A DNA stretch of 64,000 nt from Bacteroidales bacterium (GTDB lineage Bacteria > Bacteroidota > Bacteroidia > Bacteroidales > JAGONC01), in the NCBI GenBank assembly GCA_028716265.1, contig JAQUQD010000002.1:6882-70881 (forward strand). Reading direction: 5' to 3'. A model generated the notes under the pieces. The model had not been told where the DNA came from. It was given only the letters and a program-made list of their open reading frames with translations, and did no database searches. Every line of letters begins with the position of its first letter. Position 1 is the first letter of the stretch. The translations under genes were made by a program, and so were the position numbers. Shown piece after piece: positions 816 through 64,000 of the stretch.

Positions 816-1952
816 ATGATGGAAGTTGTGTTCAATAAACCTTACCTCACCGGCAAGGAAGCGCATCATCTGGCCCGCGTGGCGCTGTCGGGAAAACTTT
901 CGGGAAACGGTCAGTATACACAGATGTGTCATGATTTCTTCCAGCAGCGGTTTGGTTTCAGAAAAGCCCTGCTCACCACATCCTGCACGGATGCCCTCGA
1001 AATGGCTGCGATCCTGTGCAATATCCAGCCGGGGGATGAAGTGATCATGCCCTCGTTTACGTTTGTTTCCACGGCGAACGCATTCCTTCTCAGAGGTGCA
1101 CGGATCCGTTTTGCAGACACATATCCTCATTACCCCAACATCGATCCTGAATCCATCAGGAAGCTGATCAATGAAAAGACACGGGTGATCCTTGTGGTTC
1201 ATTATGCCGGGGTGGCATGCGACATGGACACGATCATGGCCATGGCCCGGCAGCATGACCTGATGGTGGTGGAGGATGCTGCCCATGCCATCGACAGCGG
1301 ATTCAGGGACAGGCCCCTGGGCGGGATCGGGCATTTGGGTGCCTTTTCATTCCATGAAACCAAAAACATCATCAGCGGGGAAGGAGGAATGCTGGTAGTG
1401 AATGATGACCGTCTGGTCAGCAGAGCGGAGATCATATGGGAAAAAGGCACGGACAGGGTCGCCTTCTCCAGAGGGGAGGTCGGCAAATACGTATGGAAAG
1501 ATATCGGTTCATCCTTTCTTCCTTCGGAGATCACTGCGGCGGTGCTGTACTCCCAGCTGGAGGAATTCGATGAGATCCAGTCCAAACGGAAACAGGTCTG
1601 GCAAACATATTACGAATACCTCAGGCCTCTGGAAAAAAGGAACCTGTTCAACCTGCCCCGCCTCCCCGAATGGTCCACAGTGAACGGGAACATGTTCTTC
1701 CTGATGGTCAGGGACATTGACGAACGAAGTGAACTGCTTGCATTCCTTAAACAGGAAGGAATCCATGCTGTCTTTCATTACCTGCCACTGCATTCCAGCG
1801 AGTATTTCCGGCCCAGGCACGATGGAAGGACCCTGCACCACACCGATCGTTTTGCCGGCGGTATCGTCCGGCTACCTTTTTACAATGAGATGACCGAAAA
1901 TGAGATCAACTATGTTGTGAATGCAATTCACAAATTTTACTCAAAGACCTGA
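816..1952 (+). CDS. wecE: dTDP-4-amino-4,6-dideoxygalactose transaminase-like PLP aminotransferase (DegT/DnrJ/EryC1/StrS family)
   Basis: ORF 600-1952; the homology-consistent start is ATG 816 (MMEVVFNKPYLTGKE). There is close colinear resemblance to E. coli WecE/RffA as I recall it: SCTDALEMAA, QPGDEVIMPSFTFVSTANAF, VHYAGVACDMD, FSFHETKN, EKGTDR, VFHYLPLH. Confidence 0.85.
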   Translation: MMEVVFNKPYLTGKEAHHLARVALSGKLSGNGQYTQMCHDFFQQRFGFRKALLTTSCTDALEMAAILCNIQPGDEVIMPSFTFVSTANAFLLRGARIRFADTYPHYPNIDPESIRKLINEKTRVILVVHYAGVACDMDTIMAMARQHDLMVVEDAAHAIDSGFRDRPLGGIGHLGAFSFHETKNIISGEGGMLVVNDDRLVSRAEIIWEKGTDRVAFSRGEVGKYVWKDIGSSFLPSEITAAVLYSQLEEFDEIQSKRKQVWQTYYEYLRPLEKRNLFNLPRLPEWSTVNGNMFFLMVRDIDERSELLAFLKQEGIHAVFHYLPLHSSEYFRPRHDGRTLHHTDRFAGGIVRLPFYNEMTENEINYVVNAIHKFYSKT

Positions 1953-1953
1953 A

Positions 1954-1979
1954 TCTCTTCTCTCTCCTCTCTCATTTCC
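1954..1979 (-). repeat. GARAGGA-family heptamer array (about 3-4 units) between two convergent stop codons
   Basis: The plus strand is pyrimidine-only (tctcttctctctcctctctcatttcc). The minus strand reads GAAATGA GAGAGGA GAGAGAA GAGA, and its TGA is the stop codon of the 1972-5277 gene. The array fills the 19-nt gap between stops at 1950-1952 and 1972-1974. Confidence 0.7.
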
Positions 1980-4900: not shown

Positions 4901-5277
4901 ATCACGCTGGTATTGCCAGGATCCAGAGCAAGACACCCGATCGCGTAGGCACCATAATTGTCGAAAATTGGCTCGAAGGTGGTGCCATTATTCACAGTTT
5001 TCCAGATATTTCCGCTGGCCACGGCTACATAGTATTCACTGTGGTCTGTGGGATTTACGGCAAAATCAGCAATCCTTCCCGATGTAAAGGCTGGACCAAT
5101 CGAACGGAACTTCAATCCGCTGAACAAACTGGATCGGATGGTGTCGCTGGCTGCTTCGTTATCCCTTTTTTGAGCAGTAACCATTTCAGAACAGAATAAA
5201 AGAGCCACCAGAATAAGACTCCATGATACGGCTCCGATTTTTAACATCATTTTAGACATAATGTAAAGATTTGGCAA
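1972..5277 (-). CDS. secreted BNR/Asp-box repeat protein (sortilin/VPS10-like, often annotated glycosyl hydrolase)
   Basis: 1101-aa ORF with an N-terminal signal peptide (MMLKIGAVSWSLILVALLFCSEMVTAQ). It carries at least 9 S-x-D-x-G-x-T-W Asp-box motifs, including STNGGKSWKN, TKDGGKTWEK, TTDGGKTWDK, TRDGGRTWQP, SDDRGDSWTV and STDKGRTWTS. The true start may be one of the internal Met codons at 5259-5247. Confidence 0.8.
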   Translation of the reverse strand: MPNLYIMSKMMLKIGAVSWSLILVALLFCSEMVTAQKRDNEAASDTIRSSLFSGLKFRSIGPAFTSGRIADFAVNPTDHSEYYVAVASGNIWKTVNNGTTFEPIFDNYGAYAIGCLALDPGNTSVIWAGTGENNHQRSLGYGDGVYKSTNGGKSWKNMGLKESRQIGKIIVHPKNSDIVYVAAEGSVWGPGGDRGLYQTKDGGKTWEKILSISENTGINEMVMDPRDPDVIYASSEQRRRHIYTKIGGGPETAIYKTTDGGKTWDKLTSGLPTTDMGGIGLAISPVNPDVLYAIIEAAGDQSGFYRSRNRGATWEKMSDHHESGQYYNEIFCDPKEVDKVYSVETISHVTRDGGRTWQPIGMNNRHVDDHALWIDPDDTRHFMIGGDGGIYETFDEGANYIFKSNLPVTQFYRVNVDNQYPFYHVYGGTQDNASMGGPSSNLSRDGVSRGEWYITQGGDGFWTAIDPVNQDIIYAESQYGNMVRYDRKSGESISIRPEPRKGEDTYKWNWNTPLFISPHSPTRLYCSANKVLRSDDRGDSWTVISEDLTRQIDRNTFQVMGKYWSIDAVAKDRSTSLFGTIISLDESPLRENLIYAGTDDGLIQVTEDGKTWRRIESFPGVPEYTYVSDLLASLYDENVVFAAFDNILRDDFKPYLLKSTDKGRTWTSIAGDLPQNGTVHTIVQDHVNPNLLFCGTEFGIFFTYNGGENWIQLKSGIPTIAVRDMVIQKRENDLVLATFGRGFYILDDYTPLREFKPEIREKDGYIFPVKDALMYIQSRSGDKPGSMHYTAPNRPFGATFTYFVKEVPKTKKELRKEKEEEMFKKGEKIPIPTDAELIAEKEEIAPYLVFTIRDTDNNIVRRIYESPKKGIHRITWNLRYQGTYPVDLRNRQFDPLTEGGDAGFALPGKYAVRLGLVHDGQYKELAGPVEFSTNVLENNALPVKDREELVTFQKNVASLNSAMQGAQRAIDELLERIESIKQAGHNTPGISPEFLVKAQQISSKLESYKFLFTGKTDNPSDEENPPGPVPLNQRLGSIAWGHWHSTSVTRSMKDNYAILLEEFPPVLEKIRSVAEKDIRVLEDELVRVGAPWTPGRVPVWK

Positions 5278-31660: not shown

Positions 31661-31820
31661 GTTTGTGGTTATTTGTTGTTATTGGTTGTTATTTGTTGTT
31701 ATTGGTTGTTATTGGTTGTTATTGGTTGTTATTGGTTGTTATTGGTTGTTATTGGTTGTCATTCGTTGTCATTCGTTGTCATTCGTTGTCATTCGTTGTC
31801 ATTGGTTGTCATTGGTAGTG
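31661..31820 (+). repeat. tandem array of about 16 units of a 10-nt word (ATTGGTTGTT / ATTTGTTGTT / ATTCGTTGTC)
   Basis: The units sit in perfect 10-nt register from 31671 to 31820, preceded by one degenerate unit. The run is ATTTGTTGTT, ATTGGTTGTT, ATTTGTTGTT, then 5 x ATTGGTTGTT, then ATTGGTTGTC, 4 x ATTCGTTGTC, ATTGGTTGTC and ATTGGTAGTG. It begins 16 nt upstream of the dxs start. Confidence 0.95.
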
Positions 31821-31830
31821 AAGAATTACT

Positions 31831-31880
31831 ATAAATGACCATAAATGACTACAAATAACCATGTAGGACCATAAATGCCC
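31831..31880 (+). repeat. second 10-nt array (ATAAATGACC-type, 5 units), a degenerate inverted copy of the first array
   Basis: Units are ataaatgacc ataaatgact acaaataacc atgtaggacc ataaatgccc. acaaataacc (31851-31860) is the exact complement of ggttatttgt (31667-31676). AATGAC complements the GTCATT core of the left array. Confidence 0.8.
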
Positions 31881-31896
31881 ATGACCACCTCTTGCC

Positions 31897-37777: not shown

Positions 37778-37803
37778 TACCCATCAATCATGTGGCAACC
37801 ACC

Positions 37804-38883
37804 ATGTTCGAAAACAGAAACAAACGGACAGAGCTTTCCGGGCTGGGAGAGTTTGGCCTGATACGGCACCTGACAAAGGATATCCATATTAAGAATAGCA
37901 GCACGCTCAAGGGAGTGGGTGACGATGCGGCGGTGCTGGATTACCAGGGCAGGAAGATCCTTGTTTCCACGGATCTGCTCATTGAAGGGATTCATTTCGA
38001 TTTGACCTATACGCCACTGAAGCACTTAGGGTACAAGGCAGCTGTTGTCAATTTTTCGGATATTGCCGCCATGAATGCATTTCCTGAACAGCTGACGTTG
38101 AGCATTGCCGTTTCCAACCGCTTTTCGCTGGAGGCTCTCGATGAGATCTACTCCGGAATCTACCTGGCCTGTGAGCGGTACGGTGTCGATTTTATCGGAG
38201 GGGACACTTCTTCCAGCGTCACCGGACTGATGATGTCGCTGACAGTGCTGGGGGCAGCCAGCAAAGCTGACATCACCTACCGGGATACTGCCCGCATAGG
38301 AAACCTTGTCTGCGTTAGCGGCGACCTCGGCGGAGCATACATGGGCCTGCTGCTGCTCGAAAGAGAAAAAAAGGTCTTCAAGGCTGATCCCCTAGTCCGC
38401 CCTGACCTTGAAGGATACGATTACATCCTGCAGCGGCAGCTCAAACCGGAAGCCAGAGTGGACATTATCAGAAAACTCAGGGATCTTCGGATCAAACCCA
38501 CCGCCATGATCGATATTTCGGACGGGCTGGCCTCAGAGATCCTTCACATCTGTACCGGATCGAAGACCGGCTGCTCCCTGTATGAAGAAAAGATCCCCAT
38601 GGATCCTGCCACTATGCAGACATCCTATGAGATGGGCATCGATCCGACGGTCAGCGCCCTCAACGGCGGGGAAGATTATGAATTGCTTTTCACTATAGAT
38701 ATGAAGGATTACGAAAAGATCAAGGACGATCCGGATCTGTCAGTCATTGGCCATATCACGGATCAGTCGGGTGGGATGAACCTCATTACCAGGTCGGGAG
38801 GGCAGGTACCGTTGAAGGCACAGGGATGGGATGCGTTCTTTGAAAGGAGAGAGGAGAAAGGAGAAAGGAGAAAGGAGAAATGA
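37804..38883 (+). CDS. thiL: thiamine-monophosphate kinase
   Basis: ORF 37792-38883 trimmed to MFENRNKRTELSGLGEFGLIRHL. Motifs: GVGDDAAVL, TDLLIEGIHF, GGDTSSS. The last about 13 codons ([13 protein letters not shown]) are encoded by the GARAGGA heptamer array. Confidence 0.85.
   Translation: MFENRNKRTELSGLGEFGLIRHLTKDIHIKNSSTLKGVGDDAAVLDYQGRKILVSTDLLIEGIHFDLTYTPLKHLGYKAAVVNFSDIAAMNAFPEQLTLSIAVSNRFSLEALDEIYSGIYLACERYGVDFIGGDTSSSVTGLMMSLTVLGAASKADITYRDTARIGNLVCVSGDLGGAYMGLLLLEREKKVFKADPLVRPDLEGYDYILQRQLKPEARVDIIRKLRDLRIKPTAMIDISDGLASEILHICTGSKTGCSLYEEKIPMDPATMQTSYEMGIDPTVSALNGGEDYELLFTIDMKDYEKIKDDPDLSVIGHITDQSGGMNLITRSGGQVPLKAQGWDAFFERREEKGERRKEK
38842..38883 (+). repeat. GARAGGA-family heptamer array, 6 units, 39-nt purine-only run
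   Basis: Units are GAAAGGA GAGAGGA GAAAGGA GAAAGGA GAAAGGA GAAATGA. The final unit contains both the uvrC ATG (38880) and the thiL TGA stop (38881-38883). Confidence 0.95.
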
Positions 38884-40691
38884 AGCGGGTGGAGGATCCT
38901 TTGGCGCCCCTGATCCGTACGATGCCGGAAAAGCCCGGGATCTACCAGTATTTTGACCGGGAGGGACGGATCATCTATATCGGGAAGGCGAAGAACCTGA
39001 AAAAAAGGGTTTCTTCCTATTTCAACAAAGATGCTTCGCTGAGCGGCAAGGTACGGACCCTGGTAAAGAATATCGCCGACATCCAGCATTTGGTCGTGGA
39101 TACGGAACTGGACGCCATCCTTCTGGAAAACAACCTCATCAAGAAACACCAGCCCAGGTACAACGTTCAATGGAAAGACGACAAGACCTTCCCGTGGATA
39201 TGCATCAGGAATGAACGTTTCCCCAGAGTATATCCGACGCGTAACGTAGTGCAAGACGGATCCCAGTATTTTGGTCCCTACGGTTCGGTCAGGATGATGA
39301 AGACACTGCTGGAACTGATCAGGGCGCTCTATCCGCTGCGCAATTGTTCACTGCATCTGTCGGAGTCCAACATCGCAAGAAAAAAATTCAGGGTGTGTCT
39401 TGAGTACCATCTTGGAAACTGCAAGGGTCCCTGTGAGGGACTGCAGGGAGAAGACGAGTATCAGGACTCCATAACAGCAATCCGGGAGATTATCAAAGGG
39501 AACATCCACACGGTGATCATTCAGTTAAAAGAATTGATGAATGAATATGCCAGTCGGCTGGAATTTGAAAAAGCTCACCTTGTGAAGGAGAAGATCGCAT
39601 TGCTGGAACGCTATCAGAGCAAGTCACTGGTGGTCAACCCGGCCATCCGGCATGCAGACGTATTTTCGATCGTGTCGGACGATCGTTACGGATACGTGAA
39701 TTACATCAAAGTGGTGAATGGAGCCATTGTGCAGGCTCATACGATCGAGATACGGAAAAAACTGGATGAGGCTGATGCTGAGCTGCTGGCCCTGGCCATT
39801 GCTGATTTTCGTCAGCGTTTCAACAGCGACGCTACGGAAATGATCATACCGATGAAGGTGGAACTGGCGTACCCGGATGTGGTATTTACGGTTCCCCAGC
39901 GTGGCGACAAAAAAAAACTGCTTGAGTTGTCAGAAAGAAATGCCAGGTACCTCCAGGCAGAAAAAGAAAAACAACGCGAGCTGGTCGATCCTGAGCGTCA
40001 TTCGCGCAGGATCCTTACTGTGCTGATGAATGACCTTCGGCTGAAAGAGGTGCCGGACCGTATTGAATGTTTTGATAATTCAAACATCCAGGGGAGTTAT
40101 CCTGTTGCTGCCATGGTCGTGTTCAGGAACGGCAAGCCGGATAAGAAAGAGTACCGCCACTTCATTGTCAAATCGGTGGACGGACCTGATGATTATGCTT
40201 CCATGGAAGAGATCATCCACCGTCGATATAAAAGGGTACTCGAGGAAAAAGGTGAACTTCCCCAGTTGATCATCATCGACGGTGGAAAAGGACAGCTGAA
40301 CGCAGCATTGAACAGCCTGGAAAAACTTGGGTTGAAAAACCGGATAGCCATCATCGGGATTGCCAAAAAGCTTGAGGAGATCTATTATCCTAACGACCCG
40401 CTCCCATTGTACCTGAACAAGAAGTCAGAAAGCCTCAAACTGATCCAGCAATTACGCAACGAAGCCCATCGTTTCGGCATAGCGCATCACCGCAGGCGAA
40501 GGGAAAAGGGTACATTGAAAACCGAGCTCACGCAGATCCCAGGTATTGGAGGCAAATATGCCCAGGGGCTGCTTAAACATTTCCGTTCGGTGGAGGGGGT
40601 TCGCAAAGCTTCACTGGAAGAGATCCAGAATACGATCGGCAGGAAGAAGGGGCAGGTGGTCTACGAGTATTTTAAAAACAAAAAGACCTGA
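38880..40691 (+). CDS. uvrC: excinuclease ABC subunit C
   Basis: 603 aa. GIY-YIG motif GIYQYFDREGRIIYIGKAKNLKKRVSSYF, a UVR domain (EFEKAHLVKEKIALLE) and a C-terminal RNase H-like plus (HhH)2 region. Confidence 0.95.
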   Translation: MKRVEDPLAPLIRTMPEKPGIYQYFDREGRIIYIGKAKNLKKRVSSYFNKDASLSGKVRTLVKNIADIQHLVVDTELDAILLENNLIKKHQPRYNVQWKDDKTFPWICIRNERFPRVYPTRNVVQDGSQYFGPYGSVRMMKTLLELIRALYPLRNCSLHLSESNIARKKFRVCLEYHLGNCKGPCEGLQGEDEYQDSITAIREIIKGNIHTVIIQLKELMNEYASRLEFEKAHLVKEKIALLERYQSKSLVVNPAIRHADVFSIVSDDRYGYVNYIKVVNGAIVQAHTIEIRKKLDEADAELLALAIADFRQRFNSDATEMIIPMKVELAYPDVVFTVPQRGDKKKLLELSERNARYLQAEKEKQRELVDPERHSRRILTVLMNDLRLKEVPDRIECFDNSNIQGSYPVAAMVVFRNGKPDKKEYRHFIVKSVDGPDDYASMEEIIHRRYKRVLEEKGELPQLIIIDGGKGQLNAALNSLEKLGLKNRIAIIGIAKKLEEIYYPNDPLPLYLNKKSESLKLIQQLRNEAHRFGIAHHRRRREKGTLKTELTQIPGIGGKYAQGLLKHFRSVEGVRKASLEEIQNTIGRKKGQVVYEYFKNKKT

Positions 40692-53487: not shown

Positions 53488-54194
53488 AAACCCTTGTTGT
53501 TTTAACGGGCGCCGGTATCAGCGCCGAAAGCGGCCTGCACACCTTCAGAGACCAGGGGGGACTCTGGCATAATTACCGTATTGAAGATGTAGCCACTCCT
53601 GAGGCCTGGCAGCAGGATCCAACCAGGGTACTGGCATTCTATAACGAGAGGCGTAAGCAACTCATTGAAGCAAAGCCCAATAATGCGCATTTAGCCCTGG
53701 CAGCCCTTGAAAAAAAATACGTTGTCAGGATCATCACCCAGAATATCGACGACCTGCATGAGCGCGGCGGCTCCACCCATATTTTGCATCTTCACGGAGA
53801 GTTAAGGAAGGCAAGAAGCACGGCTGATCCTGACCTTGTGTATGACATCAGCGGGTGGGAACTGAACATGGGAGACCTTTGCGAGAAAGGATCCCAGCTG
53901 AGGCCCCATGTAGTCTGGTTTGGAGAGGCGGTGCCACTCATCGAAGATGCTTCGGAAATAGTGTCGTCTGCTGATCTGCTGATGATCATCGGCACATCCA
54001 TGGTCGTTTACCCCGCAGCCGGCCTGGTGAATTATGCCAGGTACGGCATTCCCATCTATTACATTGATCCTCAGCCTAGTCCCATACGCTGGCTGAAAAA
54101 TGTTACGGTCATCCCCCGTAAAGCAGGCGACGGCGTGCCGGCACTGGTAAAAGAACTTCTTGAGAATAAAGAACAATGCAATGAACCAGAATGA
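53484..54194 (+). CDS. cobB: NAD-dependent protein deacylase (Sir2/CobB family)
   Basis: 236 aa. Motifs: LTGAGISAESGLHTFRD, ITQNIDDLHERGG, HLHGEL, IGTSMVVYPAAG. The start overlaps the mdh stop (ATGA). Confidence 0.85.
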   Translation: MKTLVVLTGAGISAESGLHTFRDQGGLWHNYRIEDVATPEAWQQDPTRVLAFYNERRKQLIEAKPNNAHLALAALEKKYVVRIITQNIDDLHERGGSTHILHLHGELRKARSTADPDLVYDISGWELNMGDLCEKGSQLRPHVVWFGEAVPLIEDASEIVSSADLLMIIGTSMVVYPAAGLVNYARYGIPIYYIDPQPSPIRWLKNVTVIPRKAGDGVPALVKELLENKEQCNEPE

Positions 54195-54651
54195 AGATAA
54201 AAAGTACCGGGAAATACTGCAACGAACCCAGTCGTTCTGTGCAAGGGACGAAAAATGCCTCAGGCAGGTCAGGCAGAAGCTGACCTTCTGGGGTGCAACA
54301 GCCTCCCAGGCAGAGGATATCCTGCAGTATTTAACGGATGAGAACTTCATCAACGAAGAGCGTTTTGCCAGGGAATTCGCCAGGGGAAAATTCCGGATCA
54401 ACAAATGGGGTAAGGTGAAAATAGCCATCGAACTGATGCGTTTACATATTCCTGAAGAATCGATCCGGAACGGACTGGATGCGATCGATCCGGATGACTA
54501 TGTTTCCCAGCTGAGAAAGATCCTTCTCCAGCGTTCAAAATCACTGAATGAATCAAATCCTGAGGTTGCCAGAAAGAAATTGGCTACCTTTGCCCTGGGG
54601 AAGGGATTTGAGGGAGAGTTGGTATGGGGAGTTGTGAGAGAGGAATTTTGA
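54181..54651 (+). CDS. recX: recombination regulator RecX
   Basis: ORF 54160-54651 trimmed to MNQNEDKKY. It shows the three-helix-repeat pattern (FCARDEKCLRQVRQKL, YLTDENFINEERFAREFARGKFRINKWGKVKI). It overlaps the cobB end by 14 nt. Confidence 0.8.
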   Translation: MNQNEDKKYREILQRTQSFCARDEKCLRQVRQKLTFWGATASQAEDILQYLTDENFINEERFAREFARGKFRINKWGKVKIAIELMRLHIPEESIRNGLDAIDPDDYVSQLRKILLQRSKSLNESNPEVARKKLATFALGKGFEGELVWGVVREEF

Positions 54652-54670
54652 GAGGAGAGAGGAGAAATAG
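54650..54670 (+). repeat. GARAGGA-family heptamer array, 3 units, overlapping the recX stop codon
   Basis: Reads T-GAGAGGA GAGAGGA GAAATAG. The recX TGA (54649-54651) overlaps the first unit. It shares the 15-mer gagaggagaaataga with the array at 57275-57302. Confidence 0.85.
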
Positions 54671-54698
54671 ATATACGAAGTTTAAGGAATAAAGAATC

Positions 54699-55776
54699 AT
54701 GGTTACGATAGAACAGATCAAAGAGCTAGAGAAGAGGCTGGAAGCCCTGAGGAGGTATCTTTGACATTGATGTCAAGAAATTGCAGACCAAAGAAGAAGA
54801 AAAACTAACGCATGAGCCTGATTTCTGGGAGGATCCCAAAATGGCAGAGGCTGTTTTGAGATCCATCCGGGATAAAAAAGAATGGACGCTTGCCTTCGAC
54901 AGAACCAAGGCTCATTTTGATGATCTGATGGTCATCTATGAATTCTTTGAAGCAGGTGAGAGCACGGAGAGCGAACTGGATGCTCAGTATACCACATGCT
55001 TGAAAGCCATTGATGACATGGAATTCATGAAAATGCTCAGCGGGGAGGAAGACCGGCTCAATGCCATTTTGTCGATCAACCCCGGGGCAGGAGGAACTGA
55101 AAGTCAGGACTGGGCGCAGATGCTCATGCGCATGTACATCCGGTGGGGAGAACGGCATAACTACAAGATCAAGGAACTGGACTACCAGGAAGGTGATGTG
55201 GCAGGGCTGAAATCGGTTTCCATTGAATTTGACGGAGAATTTGCCTACGGCTATCTCAAGGGGGAGAATGGCGTCCACCGTCTTGTCAGGATCTCCCCTT
55301 TTGATTCGAACAGCCGTCGGCACACTTCATTTGCATCGGTGTATGCCTATCCCGTTGTGGATGAGAATATCCAGATAGACATCAATCCGGCTGACATCAC
55401 ATGGGATTTTTTCCGGTCAAGCGGACCAGGAGGGCAAAATGTGAATAAAGTCGAAACGGCGGTCAGGCTCAGGCATAAAAGCGGGATCATCATCGAATGT
55501 CAGGAAACCCGCTCTCAGCTTCAGAATAAAGATAAAGCCCTCCAGATGCTTCGCTCACAGCTTTATGAGATCGAACTGAGGAAGAAAAAGGAGGAACAGG
55601 CCAAAATCGAGGGATCAAAAAAGAAGATCGAATGGGGTTCTCAGATCCGGAGCTATGTGATGCAACCATATAAACTGGTGAAAGATCTGCGCACCGGGTA
55701 TGAAACAGGCAATGTCCAGGCAGTCATGGATGGCGAGATTGATGAGTTCATCAAGGCGTACCTGATGGAGTTCTAG
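54699..55776 (+). CDS. prfB: peptide chain release factor 2, requires programmed +1 frameshift at 54762
   Basis: Frame 0 runs from ATG 54699 and encodes MVTIEQIKELEKRLEALRRYL, then TGA at 54762-54764. The +1 frame from 54763 joins ORF 54781-55776, which carries the SPF-type region, GGQNVNKVETAV (GGQ motif) and other RF2 core motifs. Confidence 0.9.
54750..54765 (+). promoter_or_regulatory. RF2 autoregulatory +1 frameshift site
   Basis: AGGAGG TAT CTT TGA C: an SD-like AGGAGG 3 nt upstream of the slippery CTT followed by the in-frame TGA-C. This is nearly identical to the E. coli prfB site AGGGGG TAT CTT TGA C. Confidence 0.9.
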
Positions 55777-55804
55777 AACAGTCGGCTGTCGGCAAAAGGC
55801 AGAA

Positions 55805-55876
55805 GAACAATTGAACAAATGAACAATTTAACAATTTGACAATTTAACAGTTTAACAGTTTAACAGTTTAACAATT
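55805..55876 (+). repeat. tandem array of 9 units of an 8-nt word (GAACAATT / TAACAATT / TAACAGTT)
   Basis: Units are gaacaatt gaacaaat gaacaatt taacaatt tgacaatt taacagtt taacagtt taacagtt taacaatt, in perfect 8-nt register. The array ends 15 nt upstream of the fumC ATG. It is preceded by gtcggct gtcggca (55781-55794). Confidence 0.95.
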
Positions 55877-55891
55877 GAATCAGGATTTATC

Positions 55892-57274
55892 ATGAAGACA
55901 CGAATTGAAAAAGACACAATGGGCACTGTGGAGGTTCCTGCCGACAGGTACTGGGGTGCACAGACACAACGGTCAAAAGACAACTTTAAAATTGGTACGG
56001 GAACCATGCCCATCGAGATCATTAGGGCATTTGCGATACTGAAAAAGGCGGCTGCACTGGCCAATTTTGATCTGGGAGTGCTTCCGGCCGAAAAAAAGGA
56101 CCTGATCTGCCAGGTATGTGATGAGATCTACGAAGGTAAACTGGATGACCATTTTCCGCTGGTGATATGGCAAACCGGTTCAGGGACGCAGTCGAACATG
56201 AACGTGAATGAAGTCATCGGCAACAGGGCGCATGTTTTAAATGGCGGCGTACTGGGTGAAGGACAGCGGTTCATCCATCCAAACGACGATGTGAACAAAT
56301 CGCAGTCATCCAACGACACGTTTCCGACAGCCATGCACATTGCCGGCTATAAGATGGTAGTGGAGACCACCATCCCCGGCGTCGAAAAGCTGCGCGATGC
56401 ACTTGCCGGGAAAGCGGAAGAATTCAAGAATATTGTCAAGACGGGCCGTACGCACCTGATGGATGCGACGCCGCTGACACTCGGGCAGGAATTTTCAGGA
56501 TACGCATCGCAGCTGGATCACGGTTTGAAAACCTTGAAAAACACATTACCCCATCTTCAGGAACTGGCTCTGGGAGGTACTGCTGTGGGAACCGGCATCA
56601 ACACGCCCAAGGGATACGCTGAACTGGTTGCCAGAAAGATCGCCGAACTCTCGGGACATCCGTTCATCACAGCACCGAACAAATTTGAGGCCCTCTCAGC
56701 CCATGATGCCATGGTGGAAACGTCGGGAGCGCTGAAGACCCTTGCCGTAAGTCTAATGCACATCGCCAGCAACATTCGTCTGCTTTCCTCCGGGCCGCGT
56801 TGCGGTTACAGCGAGATCATCCTTCCGGCCAACGAACCGGGATCCTCGATCATGCCGGGAAAAGTGAATCCCACGCAGCCGGAAGCGCTCACCATGGTTT
56901 GCGCCCAGGTCCTTGGAAACGATGTCGCCATCAACATCGGAGGGACGCACGGGCACTTCCAGCTCAATGTGTTCAAGCCGGTCATGATCGCCAATCTTCT
57001 GCAGTCAGCAAGGCTGCTGGGCGACGCATGCATATCGTTCACCGACCACTGCGTGGTTGACATCCAGCCCAACATGCCGTACATCCAAAAGAACCTTGAG
57101 AACTCACTGATGCTCGTCACTGCACTGAACACACATATCGGGTATGACAATTCCGCGAAGATCGCAAAGAAAGCGCATACCGAGAACAAAACGCTGCGCG
57201 AGGCGGCCATTGAACTAGGACTTGTGACGGAGGAACAGTTCCGGGAGTGGGTTGATCCTGCGAAAATGATATGA
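55892..57274 (+). CDS. fumC: class II fumarate hydratase
   Basis: 460 aa. Motifs: [64 protein letters not shown] (signature SS loop). Confidence 0.95.
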
Positions 57275-57302
57275 GAGAGGAGAAAGGAGAGAGGAGAAAT
57301 AG
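57275..57302 (+). repeat. GARAGGA-family heptamer array, 4 units, directly after the fumC stop codon
   Basis: TGA (57272-57274) is followed at once by GAGAGGA GAAAGGA GAGAGGA GAAATAG. Confidence 0.9.
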
Positions 57303-57361
57303 AATACAATTAAATACATTTTTCATCGCGTAGCGATGACATGTCGGTAGTAGATGTATTG

Positions 57362-58552
57362 TTAACGATTGTATTTTCTCTTTCGGTAAAAAATCCACAA
57401 TAGGATCAGGCCGGTGAAGGTCAGGCCGCGAAGGAACCAAGTTTTTTGTTGATCGATCCTGAATGCCGGGGGGTTGGACGGGATCGTTTCCTTATAGCGT
57501 GCCACGGGATTCAGATAAAAGGTGGTACCGTCGGGGTAAGCGATTTCCGTTCGGATATAGGGATCAGAGGCCTGTATCGTATAAGCTGCTATGGAAGAAT
57601 TGGCTTGCCTTGATTTGACGATCCCGCCCCCACTGATGAACCTGAATTCCGCCGCTGATGAATCCATTTCAACCAGCAGGGTATCACCCTGCAACTGTAC
57701 TTTTCTCAGGCGCGGCAGGTGTTGATGCCTCAACGCTTTTTGCTCCATAGTCTCTCCCAGGGGCCTGGGTATTTCTGCTCCATAGGATTGCCCTTTTTTG
57801 AGGGAAGCGATGATCTGGGACGAATGGTTGAGCGGGGAATGGATCATCGTGCAGAACTGTCCGACTTCGTCAGGATTGGATACGTCATGTGCATCGTCGT
57901 TGGCCAGAATGGTAACATAACGTCCGGCCGATAGGGCTGTATCCCAGTGCCCGATTGATTTCCGGAAGCCATTGAGTGCTTCAATGCCATCGTAATTCGA
58001 CAGCCATTTCACCTCTTCCGCAGGATAATCCCTGGTGAATTCCGGATGGGCAATATACACCAGATCACTGGAAGCTCTCAAACGGTTAAGGATCTGTTGT
58101 TTATGATGAAGGTTCTGGAATAGGGGGTAATCGTTCCAGATGACCTTGTGGGCACCGATCAGCACATGATGGTTCTTTTCAAATCCATAACCATGTTCAT
58201 AGACCGGGATGAAGCCGGGTTGGTCAGAGCCCCAGGTATTGATCTTCTGGTAGTCAGAGATGGCAATGATATCATATCCAAGCTGTCTGTACACATCGAA
58301 GATCAGTTCGTTCGAATTTTTACGTCCGTCGGTGATGCCTCCCCAGGCTTTGGACTGGACCTGAAAATTACCTTTGCGCCATACCGCGGAGTCGATGTTC
58401 TGGTAGGGATTATACAATTTATTGCCGGAAAAGGACGCTGGTTCGGAAAATTTAAAGACCGGGCACATCAGGTGGTGAAGGATCAGGATCCCAATGGCCA
58501 GAATCAGGAGATAAAGAATAGGTTTACCGATAAGTGATATGATGTTGCGCAT
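57362..58552 (-). CDS. hypothetical membrane-anchored protein with degenerate PHP-like (CehA/McbA-type) motifs
   Basis: 396 aa with an N-terminal TM helix (ILYLLILAIGILILHHL) and a C-terminal TM helix (GLTFTGLILLWIFY). The motif series FQVQS, AISDY, YEHGY, IAHPE, IEALNG and ANDDAHD is ordered like PHP-domain metal-binding motifs, but Gln/Tyr replace some His residues. The CDS is likely real; its function is uncertain. Confidence 0.4.
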   Translation of the reverse strand: MRNIISLIGKPILYLLILAIGILILHHLMCPVFKFSEPASFSGNKLYNPYQNIDSAVWRKGNFQVQSKAWGGITDGRKNSNELIFDVYRQLGYDIIAISDYQKINTWGSDQPGFIPVYEHGYGFEKNHHVLIGAHKVIWNDYPLFQNLHHKQQILNRLRASSDLVYIAHPEFTRDYPAEEVKWLSNYDGIEALNGFRKSIGHWDTALSAGRYVTILANDDAHDVSNPDEVGQFCTMIHSPLNHSSQIIASLKKGQSYGAEIPRPLGETMEQKALRHQHLPRLRKVQLQGDTLLVEMDSSAAEFRFISGGGIVKSRQANSSIAAYTIQASDPYIRTEIAYPDGTTFYLNPVARYKETIPSNPPAFRIDQQKTWFLRGLTFTGLILLWIFYRKRKYNR

Positions 58553-58566
58553 ATGAGCCTTTTCTT

Positions 58567-58632
58567 GAGAGGAGAGAGGAGAAAGGAGAAAGGAGAGATA
58601 AATAATGAAATATCTCTCCTTTCTCCTTTCTC
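58567..58632. repeat. GARAGGA heptamer array plus its perfect inverted copy (21-bp palindrome); probable terminator of the acyl-CoA carboxylase operon
   Basis: The plus strand carries gagagga gagagga gaaagga gaaagga gagataa (58567-58601). gagaaaggagaaaggagagat (58579-58599) pairs perfectly with atctctcctttctcctttctc (58612-58632), with a 12-nt loop. In the minus sense the operon stop TAA (58640-58638) is followed directly by GAAATGA GAAAGGA GAAAGGA GAGATAT. Confidence 0.9.
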
Positions 58633-58637
58633 ATTTC

Positions 58638-60176
58638 TTACAACGGTATGTTCCCATGCTTTTTCGGGGGATTGGATTTGCTTTTATTCTGCGTCATCTC
58701 CAGGGCCTGGATGAGTTTGAATCGGGTTTCCCTGGGGAGGATGATCTCATCGATGTAGCCCAGTTCGGCTGCTTTGTATGGGCTGGCGAAGGTCTTCTTA
58801 TAATCTTCGACAGCAGCAGCCTTCTCCTCGTCGGAGAGGCGGTCACGAAAGATGATGTTCACAGCGCCTTCAGGTCCCATGACAGCAATTTCTGCCGAGG
58901 GGTAGGCAAAATTCATGTCGGCGCCGATATGTTTGCTCGACATAACGTCATAGGCACCTCCATAGGCCTTGCGTGTGATGACAGTGATTTTGGGGACGGT
59001 TGCCTCACAGAATGCGTACAGGAGTTTAGAGCCGTGCTTGATGATGCCTCCGAATTCCTGGGCGGTCCCTGGCAGGAAGCCCGGCACATCCACAAACGTG
59101 ATGAGGGGGATGTTGAATGCATCACAGAACCTTACAAACCGTGCTCCCTTGACGGAAGAGTTGATGTCCAGTACACCGGCCAGGTTTTCAGGCTGGTTGG
59201 CCACAATGCCGACGGGACGACCTCCCAGACGGGAAAATCCGACGATGATGTTCTGTGCATAGTACGGCATGACCTCAAAGAAATGGTAATCATCCACTAC
59301 GGTCCTGATGATCTCCTTCATGTCGTATGGAGTTCTGGAATCAACGGGGATGAATTTCTGGAGCCGCTCATCCTCCCGGTGGATATCGTCGGTACAGGGT
59401 TTCAGGGGGGGGTCTTCCATGTTGTTGGAAGGCAGGAAGGTCATCAGTTCGCGGATCATCATCATGCATTGTTCGTCGTTCTCGGCTACAAAATGAGCCA
59501 CACCGCTCTTGGTGTTGTGTGTCATGGCGCCGCCGAGCTCATCCTTGGTAACTTCTTCGTGTGTGACGGCTTTGATCACATCGGGGCCGGTGACGAACAT
59601 ATAACTGGAGTCTTTCACCATAAAAATGAAATCCGTCATGGCTGGAGAATAAACGGCCCCCCCTGCGCACGGGCCCAGGATCGCTGAGATCTGCGGGATC
59701 ACGCCTGATCCCATCACGTTGAGATAAAATATATCGGCGTATCCTCCCAAGCTTTCCACCCCTTCCTGTATCCGGGCACCCCCTGAGTCGTTCAGACCGA
59801 TCACCGGAGCACCCACCTTCATGGCATGTTGTACGATCTTCACGATCTTATCGGCATTGGCGCTGCTCAGCGTGCCTCCGAAAACAGTAAAATCCTGGGC
59901 AAACACGAATACAAGTCTCCCCTCGATCCTGCCATATCCGGAAACGACGCCGTCTCCCAGTATTTTATTCTTATCCATCCCAAAGTCGGTGGCACGATGG
60001 GTCACGAACTTATCCATCTCGACGAACGTGCCCGCGTCCAGCAGATCCTGGATCCTTTCCCTGGCTGTTTTCCGGCCGGCCTGATGCTGCCTGTCGATCC
60101 GCTCTTTTCCCCCACCCTGTTCAGCCAGTATGTTCCGTATCTCCAGCTGTTTGTATTTTTCTTCGTGTGATGCCAT
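58638..60176 (-). CDS. acyl-CoA carboxylase carboxyltransferase subunit (propionyl-CoA carboxylase beta / methylmalonyl-CoA carboxyltransferase family)
   Basis: 512 aa. Motifs: [67 protein letters not shown]. Confidence 0.9.
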
Positions 60177-60191
60177 AGGGTTCTGTTTTTG

Positions 60192-60268
60192 GTTGCAGGT
60201 TGCAGGCTACAGGTTACAGGTTGCAGGTTTGGAATTAACTTGAAACCTGAAACTTGAAACCTGCAACT
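60192..60268 (-). repeat. eleven heptamers in one continuous 7-nt register filling the BCCP-carboxyltransferase spacer
   Basis: The plus strand reads gttgcag gttgcag gctacag gttacag gttgcag gtttgga attaact tgaaacc tgaaact tgaaacc tgcaact. gttgcaggttt (60220-60230) pairs with aaacctgcaac (60257-60267). The array starts at the BCCP stop codon TAG (60267-60269). Confidence 0.9.
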
Positions 60269-60776
60269 ATTCAAGCAGTATCAGCGTCTGGTTCCCGTCC
60301 ACCGTCGCTCCTTCCTTCACCAGGATATCTTTCACCACGCCATCTTTTTTTGCCTTGAACTCACTTTCCATCTTCATGGCAGATACAATGATCAGGGTCT
60401 GTCCCGGTTTGACCCGGAATCCTACTTTGACAGGGATACTGACCACCTTTCCCGGCATCGGGGAGAAGATCCTGTTTCCGGCTTCGCCGAACTGGCTTTT
60501 TTCCCTGCTTCGGAGATATTTTGTCTCCGCATCCACAATCTCCACATCATAGGATCTCAGGTAGGTGTTCACCGTATATTTCCTGCCTACTCCGTTCCGG
60601 ATCAGCTCAAGATTATAGGAACGGTTGTTCAGCAGGATGGAGTAGATGCCTTCTTCTACCATGACAAGGTCCAGCTCATAGATTTTATCATCCACGGCAA
60701 TTTTTATCTGGTTGCCTTCCTGATAGATGAGTTCTACGGTTGCCGAACGTTTACCAAGATTTACTTCATAGGGCAT
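60267..60776 (-). CDS. biotin carboxyl carrier protein (biotin/lipoyl attachment domain)
   Basis: 169 aa. The C-terminal biotinyl domain carries SPMPGKVV and the biotinylation motif SAMKMES. Confidence 0.85.
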   Translation of the reverse strand: MPYEVNLGKRSATVELIYQEGNQIKIAVDDKIYELDLVMVEEGIYSILLNNRSYNLELIRNGVGRKYTVNTYLRSYDVEIVDAETKYLRSREKSQFGEAGNRIFSPMPGKVVSIPVKVGFRVKPGQTLIIVSAMKMESEFKAKKDGVVKDILVKEGATVDGNQTLILLE

Positions 60777-62587: not shown

Positions 62588-62638
62588 TTAAACAATCATT
62601 GAATAACGTTCAAAAAAGGGAGGATGAAGTAACCTTCT

Positions 62639-64000
62639 ATGAAGAACAGCTCTATGACGACTCGCATCGAGTTCAGTGATGAACGCTTCCGTATCATTTT
62701 CAACAATACCTATTCCTGGGATAACTGGATCAGCAACGATGGTGTGCTGTTGTGGGTCAATCTGGCAGTTGAAAAATTCATCGGATTTACAGTTGAAGAA
62801 TGCCATCAAATCGCTGAATTTCCCTTTTGTTTGATATCCCCGGAAGAGAAGACCATCAAGCGCCGGAAGATCCGTAAAAAGCTGCGTGCCGGCAAACCTG
62901 CCGAGAACATTGAGCTGAAGATTATCCGCAAAGACCGGAGCACGGCCTGGATGCTGAGCACCTGGAAACCGGTAATCAGTGACCAGAACGAACGGATCGG
63001 TACCTGGATCACGTTTCATGATATCACCCAGCTGAAAAATGCGGAGGTATTGCTCAAATCGGCTGTGGAGAAGCTCAAATCAACCAACCTCAAACTCAAG
63101 CATGCACGAAAAAAAGCAGAGGATGCCACCGAAGCTCAAAGTATATTTCTCTCCAATACCAGCCATGAGATCCGTACCCCCATGAACGTGATCACAGGGG
63201 TGACCGAGCTGTTGAAACAAACATCCCTTAACACGCATCAGAGCCAACTGGTATCGGTCATCGAACAGTCGACAAGTCACCTGTTGCGGATCATCAATGA
63301 TGTGCTGGATATTTCGAAGATGGAATCAGGGGAACTGGTCTTCGAAAAGATCCCTTTTCTTCCAAAGCATGCGCTCTCCGAAGTAACCTCCAGCCTGAAA
63401 AACGAAGCGGAGAAGAAAGGACTGCATTTTGAGACCGTCGTTTCGCAGTCGCTGGATGAAATGGTTGTTAAGGGGGACCCGGTCCGTTTTAAGCAAATTC
63501 TTTTCAATCTTGCCGACAATGCGATCAAGTTCACGGACAACGGGACGGTCCGTATCACCCTGCAGCTGGTCCGGAGAAAAGGCCGGCAGGTGACGTTGTC
63601 AACGGAGGTAAGTGATACCGGCATCGGGATTTCTCCCGAACAGCAAAAGCTCATCTTTCAACGCTTTGTTCAGGGAGATGCCAGCACGACCCGCAAATAC
63701 GGAGGGACGGGCCTGGGTCTTGCCATTGTGCAACAGCTCACTGTACAAATGGGAGGGAACATTCAGGTTGATAGTGTTCCTGGTAAAAGCACTGTATTTT
63801 CTGTTGTCCTGCCTTTTCAAACCGTAACACGGAAGCCTTCCGCTCCGGCGATGCAACTAGGACAGCAATTCAAACTTCAGGATGTACATGTCCTCGTTGC
63901 AGAAGATAATACATTTAACCAGCTGATTATGAAGAGTTTTCTCGAAGAAATTAATTGCACCGTCGATTTGGCGGCCAATGGCTGGGAAGTACTCGAAAAA
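62639..64000 (+). CDS. hybrid sensor histidine kinase (PAS - HisKA - HATPase - receiver), partial; 3' end runs off the window
   Basis: Absent from the ORF track because there is no stop in the window. My translation from ATG 62639 (in-frame TAA at 62630) shows a PAS-like N-terminus, H-box SHEIRTPMN, N-box NLADNAIKFT, G1 DTGIGI and G2 GGTGLGL. The receiver start VLVAEDNTFNQ follows. Confidence 0.85.
   Translation, partial: MKNSSMTTRIEFSDERFRIIFNNTYSWDNWISNDGVLLWVNLAVEKFIGFTVEECHQIAEFPFCLISPEEKTIKRRKIRKKLRAGKPAENIELKIIRKDRSTAWMLSTWKPVISDQNERIGTWITFHDITQLKNAEVLLKSAVEKLKSTNLKLKHARKKAEDATEAQSIFLSNTSHEIRTPMNVITGVTELLKQTSLNTHQSQLVSVIEQSTSHLLRIINDVLDISKMESGELVFEKIPFLPKHALSEVTSSLKNEAEKKGLHFETVVSQSLDEMVVKGDPVRFKQILFNLADNAIKFTDNGTVRITLQLVRRKGRQVTLSTEVSDTGIGISPEQQKLIFQRFVQGDASTTRKYGGTGLGLAIVQQLTVQMGGNIQVDSVPGKSTVFSVVLPFQTVTRKPSAPAMQLGQQFKLQDVHVLVAEDNTFNQLIMKSFLEEINCTVDLAANGWEVLEK

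Follow-up and report, generated by a model that had tools for sequence, protein, structure and literature searches.

Tandem GARAGGA heptamers at the 3' ends of genes in a Bacteroidales genome

GARAGGA arrays and their genes

The window, a 64,000-nucleotide stretch of a Bacteroidales metagenome-assembled genome, carries period-7 arrays of the purine-only unit GARAGGA at five loci, with one more array just outside it. Tandem Repeats Finder assigns period 7 to all arrays, and the gene names used below agree with Pfam matches and database gene calls. The double unit GARAGGAGARAGGA occurs 11 times on the two strands, against 0.01 occurrences expected under a second-order Markov model, so the motif is far beyond chance. 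An earlier note had reported five arrays; all five are real, and their quoted sequences and stop coordinates are correct, but the total is six, because a plus-strand array at 58567-58598 was overlooked.

Array A1 (1953-1980, minus strand) reads GAAATGA GAGAGGA GAGAGAA GAGAT, and its first unit contains the TGA stop of a BNR/sortilin-type gene (1974-1972, minus strand). A1 fills the 19-nt spacer between this gene and a convergent DegT-type gene, to which it is antisense and whose stop (1950-1952) is 1 nt away. Array A2 (38842-38883, plus strand) consists of 5.6 units of GAAAGGA or GAGAGGA and lies inside a ThiL-like ORF, in which the last 13 codons are an array-encoded C-terminal tail. The terminal unit of A2, GAAATGA, carries the stop codon, which overlaps the uvrC start as ATGA; an AGGAG of the array sits 9 nt before the uvrC ATG.

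In array A3 (54649-54670, plus strand), the recX TGA (54649-54651) overlaps the first unit of GAGAGGA GAGAGGA GAAATAG. The array is 28 nt upstream of the prfB start (54699), and prfB itself has a frameshift site (Shine-Dalgarno (SD)-dependent, +1) with AGGAGG 3 nt before CUU UGA, which is conserved in relatives. Array A4 (57272-57302, plus strand) comprises the fumC TGA (57272-57274) followed by GAGAGGA GAAAGGA GAGAGGA GAAATAG, in a spacer convergent with a 396-aa gene of unknown kind. The recX and fumC copies do have a word in common, as had been noted, although it is 19 nt long rather than 15 (AGGAGAGAGGAGAAATAGA).

The remaining two arrays together make up A5, an intercistronic hairpin (58553-58637, minus strand) with a purine arm at 58637-58611, a loop, and a CU arm at 58600-58567. 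The purine arm, GAAATGA GAAAGGA GAAAGGA GAGAT, begins directly after the TAA of a carboxyltransferase gene (58640-58638, minus strand), and it forms a perfect 22-bp stem with the sixth array, which is a 32-nt plus-strand purine array antisense to both flanking genes. The spacer has a folding energy of -37.6 kcal/mol. An A-rich stretch of 14 nt separates the hairpin from the ATG (58552) of the 396-aa gene, and no U tract was found 3' of the window's hairpin on the transcribed strand.

The central claim of the earlier note, that sense-strand arrays are anchored on stop codons, holds in the window, in relatives and in other phyla. Its wording that all arrays begin on or right after a stop fits the recX, fumC, BNR and carboxyltransferase copies; the thiL copy instead is part of the ORF and has the stop at its end. 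Just outside the window, the ORF of a histidine kinase likewise reads through its array, with its stop in a terminal unit that bears a T. Runs free of pyrimidines measure 18-39 nt, so that the 27-39 nt given previously applies to some copies. Solitary arrays are predicted to be single-stranded as RNA, no quadruplex is predicted for the GARAGGA arrays, and some copies are in spacers without a recognisable intrinsic terminator.

Unrelated arrays in similar positions

Other arrays with periods of 7-10 nt are frequent in the window and its left flank. In the prfB-fumC spacer (55777-55876, plus strand), two CAGTCGG/CTGTCGG units near the prfB stop are followed by nine copies of AACAATTT (55806-55876), ending about 16 nt before the fumC ATG. 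A second tandem-repeat hairpin (60191-60267, minus strand), made of (TTGCAGG)n and (AACCTGC)n, is in the same operon as A5; it extends from immediately past the stop of a biotin-carrier gene (60267-60269) to 14 nt short of the carboxyltransferase ATG. The SprA stop is followed by an array (CTCTGTGC) whose sense strand is rich in C and T. Arrays that abut stops without resembling SD sequences have the units GGCGGTT, GGCGGGTC, GCCGGTA and TTGCAGG in this lineage, and the first three of these each occupy the orthologous prfB stop of a different relative. Because unrelated 7-10-nt arrays are in like positions, we assign the GARAGGA arrays to the heptameric simple-sequence repeats (the STRR or "long SSR" class). 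The earlier note had overlooked these abundant arrays, the partner arm of the hairpin and the prior literature on heptamers near stops.

Comparison with relatives and across phyla

Conservation of the junction between array and stop had been proposed as a check. Among the five relatives compared, arrays recur at the orthologous fumC and carboxyltransferase stops, with lengths that differ in 7-nt steps. For example, L122 and L124 have an identical neighbouring protein, and their fumC arrays are one 7-nt unit apart (96 versus 103 nt). In L125, the fumC spacer is convergent and 23 nt long. The recX array has 2 units in the window, 7 in L124 and 10 in L122, and is absent in L120. In L125 the recX array is a two-unit array translated within the ORF, whereas that of the window is untranslated; the recX ORF of one relative stops on a T-bearing terminal unit. 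At locus L061, a continuous array is broken by the stop codon's T. Arrays have been both gained and lost among relatives.

The A5 hairpin is present in 5 of 5 relative loci compared, with both arms growing in step. Its folding energies span -38 to -61 kcal/mol and do not differ consistently between sense and antisense, so they give no direct indication that selection acts on the RNA. In the window and in L128 the array encodes the ThiL tail, whereas homologues at greater distance terminate shortly past an AQGWDA motif. Among 80 ThiL loci of other Bacteroidota (581 kb), an array was found in the closest relative only. The GARAGGA family is lineage-specific.

We also collected 121 three-unit arrays from many phyla, and considered stop and start codons within 12 nt. 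Stops within this distance are on the sense strand in 33 cases and on the antisense strand in 6 (p = 1.4e-5). This polarity, and the retention of arrays at orthologous stops, bear out the view that neither orientation nor position relative to stops is random. Exact overlap with a stop occurs in 20 of the 121 arrays, and 14 of these 20 ORFs have Pfam domains. A sense start codon is within 12 nt downstream of a single array. In 5 arrays, the 5' edge of the purine strand abuts the start of a divergent gene, so that the CU strand is directly upstream on the coding strand. Inverted partners lie downstream of the array 16 times and upstream once, so that the hairpins are almost invariably purine-first.

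A proposed origin as slippage repeats tolerated at gene 3' ends

The explanation we favor, with a probability of roughly 0.5, is that GARAGGA is a lineage-specific heptanucleotide family of the STRR/long-SSR class that is made by slippage and tolerated at gene 3' ends, rather than a dedicated translation-termination signal. Arrays are confined to the final codons of genes and to their 3' flanks, and the sense strand is the purine one. Slipped-strand mispairing would create them, and those in harmless places would be kept; at the end of an ORF, a sense-oriented array of purines only may do especially little harm. Such an array is stop-free in every frame and encodes ERREERG or ERRKEKG in all three; the antisense strand would encode S/L/P/F-rich peptides. 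Since the three frames yield the same hydrophilic E/R/K/G peptide, length changes of 7 nt would not damage the protein. The array would also remain free of structure in the RNA. A purine-to-T change within the array produces TAA, TAG or TGA, unless GG follows.

This harmlessness and the easy gain of stops would make ORF ends and array edges coincide, by either of two routes. The ORF might stop on a T at the 5' edge of the array (recX, fumC, BNR, carboxyltransferase), or it might read through and stop at a terminal GAAATGA or GAAATAA (thiL, the histidine kinase outside the window, and recX of a relative). In most of the 20 exact overlaps, the immediately preceding coding sequence does not resemble an array, so the conversion of a T within an array into a stop accounts for only some cases. 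With a complementary CU array downstream, the RNA would form a long hairpin starting at the stop codon. We infer that these paired copies act as REP-like elements in RNA stability or processing between cistrons or at 3' ends.

Tolerance alone does not account for the presence of the fumC and carboxyltransferase arrays in every relative when such arrays are highly mutable, and this persistence suggests some positive function. Slippage and tolerance also leave unaccounted for the purine 5' edge at divergent starts (the 5 cases above) and the bacterial preference for 7-nt units.

Alternative explanations

None of the three mechanisms put forward in the earlier note is supported in the form given there. 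It is possible, but unlikely, that the arrays serve to avoid Rho on sense transcripts or to load it on antisense ones. A G-rich, C-free array would keep Rho off the ribosome-free RNA past the stop, and the unstructured, G-free (UCUCCUY)n of the opposite strand would be an ideal loading site at which antisense transcription is cut off. In hairpins, the purine-first order would pair the CU arm once it is made, leaving CU-rich RNA unexposed in both directions. Rho prefers C-rich, G-poor, unstructured RNA, which fits the antisense CU strand. The sense polarity (33 versus 6), the purine-first hairpins (16 versus 1) and the copies at very short convergent spacers (19 nt for A1, 23 nt for fumC in L125) are also consistent with this idea. 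Of the three arrays at the prfB stop of relatives, GGCGGTT and GGCGGGTC have a G-rich sense strand; the same cannot be clearly said of the third, GCCGGTA, or of the hairpin unit TTGCAGG. However, arrays of 18-40 nt fall below the typical length of a Rho loading site, the sense strand of the SprA-stop array is CT-rich, and in five arrays it is the CU strand that directly precedes a start on the coding strand.

We consider it quite unlikely that the arrays are a multivalent platform for a single-strand RNA-binding protein, e.g., a Bacteroidota RRM-1 protein, that would occupy one site per AGGA-containing unit and either shield the 3' UTR or modulate the adjacent cistron. In favor of such a platform, the units are repeated in register, solitary arrays are predicted to be unpaired, and Bacteroides RbpB bound a three-copy GUAGGAUA RNA with a Kd of 5.1 uM but left a C/U-rich motif unbound (bioRxiv 10.1101/2021.04.27.441718). 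The CLIP motif of RbpB, however, is a 41-nt sRNA motif that differs from the array units (PMC11697453). Moreover, relatives have unrelated units at like positions, the phyla that have arrays differ in their RNA-binding proteins, half of the copies in the window are either translated or sequestered in a hairpin, and no RRM gene was seen within the window.

A role at the DNA or R-loop level is very unlikely. After the departure of ribosomes, the homopurine-homopyrimidine tract would form a triplex, or a very stable hybrid of purine RNA with pyrimidine DNA, that slows or halts RNA polymerase just past the stop. Orientation-dependent transcription blocks by GAA repeats are established, the orientation of the arrays puts purines in the RNA, their position is directly after the stop, certain copies are in the spacers that lack a recognisable intrinsic terminator, and (GAGAGGA)n has the mirror symmetry needed for H-DNA. 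Nevertheless, (GAAAGGA)n lacks this symmetry, the arrays are short, a block would do harm at A2 and A3, which are within apparent operons, and paired copies favor a hairpin.

Least credible is the leading proposal of the earlier note, that GGAG units pair with the 16S anti-SD of post-termination ribosomes, causing retention or reinitiation: AGGAG at every unit junction, the sense orientation adjoining stops, the AGGAG ahead of uvrC, and the retained prfB site, which suggests that elongating ribosomes of this lineage can use their anti-SD, are outweighed by the non-SD-like arrays in the same slots, the base-paired GGAGs of A5, the 1 in 121 arrays with a nearby sense start, the convergent genes faced by A1, A4 and the copy outside the window, which leave nothing downstream to reinitiate, and the scant use of SD sequences by Bacteroidota, whose anti-SD is sequestered at initiation in published ribosome structures.

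Relation to known repeat systems

The GARAGGA arrays form one family within a class of bacterial heptamer repeats that had been described before, and are not a newly found ribosome signal. Closest are the GGGAATC and GGGGA(C/T)T heptamers of Xanthomonas and Nostoc, which are biased to coding-strand stops (Rehm et al. 2015, PMC4692102). Like GARAGGA, these are 7-nt tandem units at many dispersed intergenic loci, with the G-rich strand coding, located 0-50 bp from a stop that some of them overlap, nearer to the 5' neighbouring ORF than to the 3' neighbour, and sometimes in inverted pairs. In both, position is conserved among related species (Xanthomonas species in the earlier case), length and sequence vary, and function is unexplained. 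GARAGGA differs in being purine-only, in having GG rather than GGG tracts and no predicted quadruplex, in lacking a preference for four units, in its Bacteroidales host, and in that several copies are translated as protein tails.

The STRR heptamers of heterocystous cyanobacteria and the 5-11-nt long SSRs (Mazel 1990; Mrazek 2007), as summarized in the papers that cite them (PMC4692102, PMC4679880), are also tandem arrays of heptanucleotides; they abound in some lineages but are missing from close ones, are for the most part non-coding, and have been ascribed to polymerase slippage. The class is over-represented in Cyanobacteria, Bacteroidota, Xanthomonas and others, and its units differ in sequence from GARAGGA. 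We know of no description of exact stop-codon overlap or purine-first hairpin polarity for it.

The TAACTGA repeats of Beggiatoaceae, Cyanobacteria and some Bacteroidetes (MacGregor 2015, PMC4679880) resemble GARAGGA as intergenic direct heptamers that are mixed with other heptamer arrays and show indels between strains in 7-nt increments. They are mostly just upstream of starts, in forward orientation, whereas GARAGGA is at stops. The AACAATTT arrays of the window resemble them more in behavior. Only the paired GARAGGA copies are comparable with enterobacterial REP/BIME elements, which are dispersed stem-loops of intercistronic and 3' operon regions. REPs are imperfect palindromes of 20-40 nt that keep a fixed consensus and owe their spread to a dedicated transposase, whereas the paired GARAGGA arms are tandem heptamers of variable length. 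A REP-like role of the paired copies in the stability of mRNA segments is plausible.

Purine heptamer arrays at gene ends in the window

The GARAGGA arrays, tandem 7-nt units made of purines only, are a nonrandom feature that chance does not explain. The double unit GARAGGAGARAGGA is observed 11 times on the two strands, whereas a second-order Markov model predicts 0.01, and Tandem Repeats Finder reports a period of 7 at every array, with 2.3-5.6 copies each. Six GARAGGA loci lie in about 76 kb of this contig. An earlier note on this DNA had listed five arrays, and its quoted sequences and stop-codon coordinates all hold on re-check. However, a sixth is present, a 32-nt purine run on the plus strand (58567-58598) that is antisense to both neighboring genes and is the complement of the carboxyltransferase copy. 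Also, the word common to the recX and fumC copies is 19 nt long, not 15.

The gene names used in that note agree with Pfam matches and database gene calls. A BNR/sortilin-type gene (1972-5259, minus strand) converges with a DegT-type aminotransferase gene (819-1952, plus strand). A ThiL-like AIR-synthase-family ORF (37792-38883, plus strand) overlaps uvrC (38880-40691, plus strand). Farther along, the plus strand carries recX (54181-54651), prfB and fumC (55892-57274), in that order. A minus-strand operon encodes biotin carboxylase, biotin carrier, carboxyltransferase (58638-60176) and an unknown 396-aa protein (57362-58552). SprA and PorP genes are also seen, and these, together with the names of the closest protein homologues, indicate Bacteroidales. 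A PAS/HisKA histidine kinase is called in the database on the plus strand from about 62654 to beyond the window end, and we therefore rejected two long minus-strand ORFs there (62588-63019 and 63277-63654) as spurious.

All five arrays had been said to begin on or just after the stop codon of the gene whose sense strand carries the purines. This is true of four, which lie 0-5 nt from the stop. The thiL array instead lies inside its ORF, codes for the last 13 residues and ends on the stop. The BNR copy occupies a 19-nt convergent spacer, and so lies antisense to the DegT-type gene as well, 1 nt from its stop. This copy and the fumC copy face convergent genes; the recX array ends 28 nt before the prfB ATG.

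Other tandem arrays with periods of 7-10 also occupy spacers in the window. A 250-nt spacer between two minus-strand genes contains a 15-copy decamer array (GTTATTGGTT / GTCATTCGTT, with (GTTATTGGTT)x15 at 31668-31816), followed by a partly complementary (ATAAATGACC)n array; both lie in 31668-31882. An (CTCTGTGC)x3 array follows the SprA stop, and (AACAATTT)x9 lies upstream of fumC (55806-55876). In the 9 kb left of the window are (AGCTGCA)x11, (AGTCAGC)x8, (AACAATTT)x5 and (TGATCTT)x5. In this genome, (AACAATTT)n is found twice, at 55806-55876 and at 1551-1590 of L208 (a locus of the same genome), and both arrays end about 16 nt before a start codon, that of fumC or of a short-chain dehydrogenase; the fumC-side copy is kept in relatives. 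Given this placement, repeat families seem to prefer different positions, A/T-rich ones before starts and purine- or G-rich ones after stops. Also in L208 (1498-1551), an (AGTCAGC)x7.7 array occupies part of the final ~20 codons in a KAS III-type (ACP_syn_III) gene, and is a second repeat family translated as a C-terminal tail.

Comparison with relatives

Homologues of the 396-aa protein with 88, 85 and 77% identity are encoded on contigs with the same gene order (loci L120, L122, L124 and L125). The fumC array is present in all of these relatives, 0-5 nt from the fumC stop every time. In L125, the 23-nt convergent fumC spacer is array almost throughout, and L122 and L124, whose 396-aa proteins are identical, have fumC arrays exactly one 7-nt unit apart in length. 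At recX, the array numbers two units in the window, 10 in L122 and seven in L124, and is absent in L120; in L125, a two-unit array is translated, and the terminal unit GAAATAA supplies the stop. Conservation of the array-stop junction, which the earlier note had proposed to check, therefore holds in all relatives at fumC and carboxyltransferase, but not at recX.

The prfB stops of L120, L122 and L124 each adjoin a different array, the three being (GGCGGTT)n, (GGCGGGTC)n and (GCCGGTA)n, which points to a fixed site whose unit sequence changes quickly. In the nearest thiL relative (84% identity), the ORF also runs through its array and has an array-encoded tail of 15 residues, and more distant ThiL homologues stop a few codons beyond the conserved AQGWDA motif. 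In a set of 80 ThiL loci taken from Bacteroidota other than the window (581 kb), a two-unit GARAGGA array is found only in that nearest relative, and none is found in the 572 kb of the 79 more distant loci. As judged from these sequences, the family is thus confined to the lineage of the window.

Arrays in other phyla

When one genome per species was scanned for runs of three units, at least 118 loci were found: at least 56 in Bacteroidota, 16 in Gemmatimonadota, 11 in Planctomycetota, 11 in Cyanobacteria, four in Acidobacteriota and 20 in other phyla, with none in Bacillota or Gammaproteobacteria among the matches listed; this taxon tally is indicative only. Genomes in scattered phyla have several matches each, among those listed, and many of the arrays adjoin other heptamer arrays.

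We oriented 121 arrays with the purine strand up and compared them with ORFs of at least 120 codons, as called heuristically. Among the matches listed, a sense ORF stop lies within 12 nt of the 5' end of the array in 33 of 121 cases, including 20 in which the stop overlaps the first two purines. An antisense ORF stop lies within 12 nt of the 3' end in only six (binomial p = 1.4e-5 for 33 versus 6), and a divergent gene start adjoins the 5' end in five. This cross-species census of offset and orientation, akin to the genome-wide one that had been proposed, has a clear sense bias; the observation that arrays are anchored on sense stops is essentially right and extends to other phyla. The exact-overlap ORFs have confident Pfam domains in 14 of 20 cases, several reaching the C-terminus. 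For two-unit secondary arrays in the fetched loci, a small sample, sense stops are within 12 nt in 3 of 17 and antisense stops in 0 of 17.

Several three-unit arrays in Prevotella lie deep within long sense predicted ORFs (L014, L036, L040, L042, L077, L078, L082 and L085), where they would encode ERREERG-type heptapeptide repeats.

Hairpin-forming copies

Some copies are paired, in that a purine arm is accompanied by a complementary CU arm. After the carboxyltransferase stop (58553-58637, minus strand), the transcribed strand reads TAA, purine arm, 10-nt loop, CU arm, 14 A-rich nucleotides and ATG, and is predicted to form a perfect 22-bp stem (-37.6 kcal/mol). This hairpin is kept in all relatives, always with GAAATGAGAGAGGAG directly after the stop, and its arms lengthen together (spacers of 85-104 nt, predicted at -52 to -61 kcal/mol). 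A further GARAGGA hairpin lies just beyond the window end (window-equivalent 64606-64665). The histidine-kinase ORF runs through one of its purine arms and stops at GAAATGA; the other arm of purines overlaps with the stop of a GTPase gene that is convergent. Among the cross-phylum matches listed, the array has an inverted CU partner (12 nt or longer) downstream in 16 cases and upstream in one; paired copies therefore have the purine arm first, as read from either strand.

The paired copies are long predicted hairpins that extend from a stop codon to just before the next start, and they are kept in every relative examined. We interpret them as RNA elements, intercistronic or at 3' ends, that may work like REP elements. 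REP/BIME elements combine a conserved imperfect palindrome in such a position with an associated transposase; the carboxyltransferase copy and that at 64606-64665 have the position and a hairpin, and solitary arrays have neither stem nor palindrome. The latter are predicted to be unstructured, with folding energies not below -3.4 kcal/mol, and folding with quadruplex energies predicts no G-quadruplex in them. A consensus scan for Rho-independent terminators placed no site at any array, and gave as many sites overall as expected from shuffled sequence. In the transcribed strand, CUCUCCUCUCAAGAAAAGG follows the carboxyltransferase hairpin, which lacks the combination of GC-rich stem and direct U tract of such terminators; in other phyla, a T5-T7 run closes some of the hairpin copies (L025 and L111). 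We also sought the asymmetry expected from G-U versus A-C pairs, but sense and antisense folding energies of the hairpins show no consistent difference, and selection at the RNA level on the hairpins was therefore rejected. The whole window has no Rfam match at gathering thresholds.

A second hairpin in the carboxylase operon (60191-60267), of the form (TTGCAGG)n/(AACCTGC)n, begins directly after the biotin-carrier stop and leaves 14 nt to the carboxyltransferase ATG. The window and L125 have it, as does L120 with another unit; in L122 and L124 it has shrunk to a 29-nt spacer. In Prevotellaceae, a conserved word, CCATGCGGGAC or its complement, comes after the (GAAAGGA)n arrays, often in the loop of a purine-arm/CU-arm hairpin (L011, L020, L076, L081, L092, L100 and L112, from Alloprevotella and Prevotella). 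This looks like a distinct structured repeat element of that family.

Origin of the stop-codon association

GARAGGA arrays grow and shrink in 7-nt steps, are gained and lost between relatives, and are restricted to ORF ends and 3' flanks with the purines on the sense strand. At recX, one orthologous site is translated in L125 and untranslated in the window. On the likeliest reading, purine-only arrays would be tolerated across ORF ends: none of the three frames holds a stop, and each encodes ERREERG or ERRKEKG, so changes in array length would not truncate or scramble the protein. A purine-to-T change would then create TAA, TAG or TGA, except where GG follows. The T-bearing terminal units GAAATGA, GAAATAG and GAAATAA match this route, as does a continuous array in locus L061 that is interrupted by the T of the stop codon. 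The antisense version would encode S/L/P/F-rich tails and expose CU-rich RNA. Tolerance and the purine-to-T route may explain part of the anchoring on stops, but only part, since the codons upstream of most exact overlaps do not resemble an array.

Possible functions

A bolder proposal is that stop-anchored, sense-purine heptamer arrays are a convergently evolved 3'-end signal in Bacteroidota, Gemmatimonadota, Planctomycetota, Cyanobacteria and Acidobacteriota, marking the boundary between translated and untranslated RNA. The signal would work through strand-selective Rho loading on antisense RNA and exclusion of Rho from sense RNA, or through a single-strand RNA-binding protein. We consider this proposal unlikely, with a probability of roughly 0.15.

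Its Rho version fits the polarity of the arrays: the sense RNA is free of C, the antisense RNA is free of G and CU-rich, and a purine-first hairpin would never expose its CU arm. However, the array after SprA is CT-rich, and CU arrays lie directly upstream of some start codons. The protein version has one lead by analogy, as Bacteroides RbpB binds an RNA of three GUAGGAUA units (bioRxiv 10.1101/2021.04.27.441718), although the RbpB CLIP data report no purine heptamer motif (PMC11697453). Formation of a triplex or R-loop at the homopurine tract would agree with array orientation, and homopurine-homopyrimidine composition and the mirror symmetry of (GAGAGGA)n are as H-DNA would need, but (GAAAGGA)n is not mirror-symmetric, and copies inside operons do not fit.

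The earlier note had raised, as the first of its hypotheses, pairing with the anti-Shine-Dalgarno sequence, by which ribosomes would be retained or reinitiate at stops. This idea is weakened because the same stop-adjoining slots hold arrays that do not resemble Shine-Dalgarno sequences, a number of copies lie opposite convergent genes, base pairing is predicted for the GGAG units in the hairpin copy, and start codons almost never follow closely. In the window, only the thiL array places a purine motif 5-10 nt before a co-directional start, that of uvrC. Among the matches listed, a sense start lies within 12 nt after the array in 1 of 121, and a general role as the Shine-Dalgarno sequence of the downstream gene was rejected. 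In favor of the idea, prfB retains its classical +1 frameshift site (54699-54767), which is kept in relatives. ORF0 (54699-54764) encodes MVTIEQIKELEKRLEALRRYL and ends in AGGAGG TAT CTT TGA C, with AGGAGG 3 nt before CTT TGA C; the rest of the main ORF is in the +1 frame. The site suggests, if E. coli is a guide, that the anti-Shine-Dalgarno is usable on elongating ribosomes in this Bacteroidales lineage. An explanation based on the replication strand was set aside, since the GC-skew profile of the window is ambiguous and the arrays follow gene orientation on both strands.

If arrays do act as a 3'-end signal, heptameric simple-sequence repeats, to which no function has been assigned since 1990, would have a defined role. 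A functional positional rule, for example through Rho insulation, protection of 3' ends or binding of a protein, would account for a widespread repeat class; should tolerance alone lie behind it, the rule clearly illustrates how codon structure shapes where repeats can persist. In practical terms, the arrays mislead gene callers on C-termini and break metagenome assemblies.

Relation to known repeats

To our knowledge, heptanucleotide tandem repeats are abundant in many bacterial phyla and have been noted since 1990, and their function was never established. GARAGGA arrays are heptameric simple-sequence repeats of this class, given their tandem 7-nt units beyond chance, copy changes by whole units, dispersed and patchy loci, and stop bias. 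Literature searches with the unit and exact repeat strings found no paper on the unit, only eukaryotic primer or sequence matches. What is new is a family made of purines only, with a sharp rule of position by which array edge and stop codon share two bases, the near-invariant purine-first polarity of paired copies, and direct comparative evidence that the same array can form the tail of the protein in one strain and belong to the 3' UTR of another.

As cited in PMC4692102 and PMC4679880, such repeats are called STRR in cyanobacteria and long SSRs in the Mrazek 2007 survey. TAACTGA heptamers in Beggiatoaceae, Cyanobacteria and Bacteroidetes are mostly located before start codons and exhibit 7-nt indels between strains (MacGregor 2015, PMC4679880). 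GGGAATC and GGGGA(C/T)T arrays mostly lie on the coding strand within 50 bp of a stop, which some overlap, and are nearer to the 5' neighboring ORF whatever the ORF orientation; their position is kept between species, their length varies and no function was found (Rehm 2015, PMC4692102). The same coding-strand bias just after stops is found in the window and in the cross-phylum set. GARAGGA arrays thus follow the positional rule of the GGGAATC and GGGGA(C/T)T heptamers, and are a new sequence family in a known class, for other members of which this positional bias was already published.
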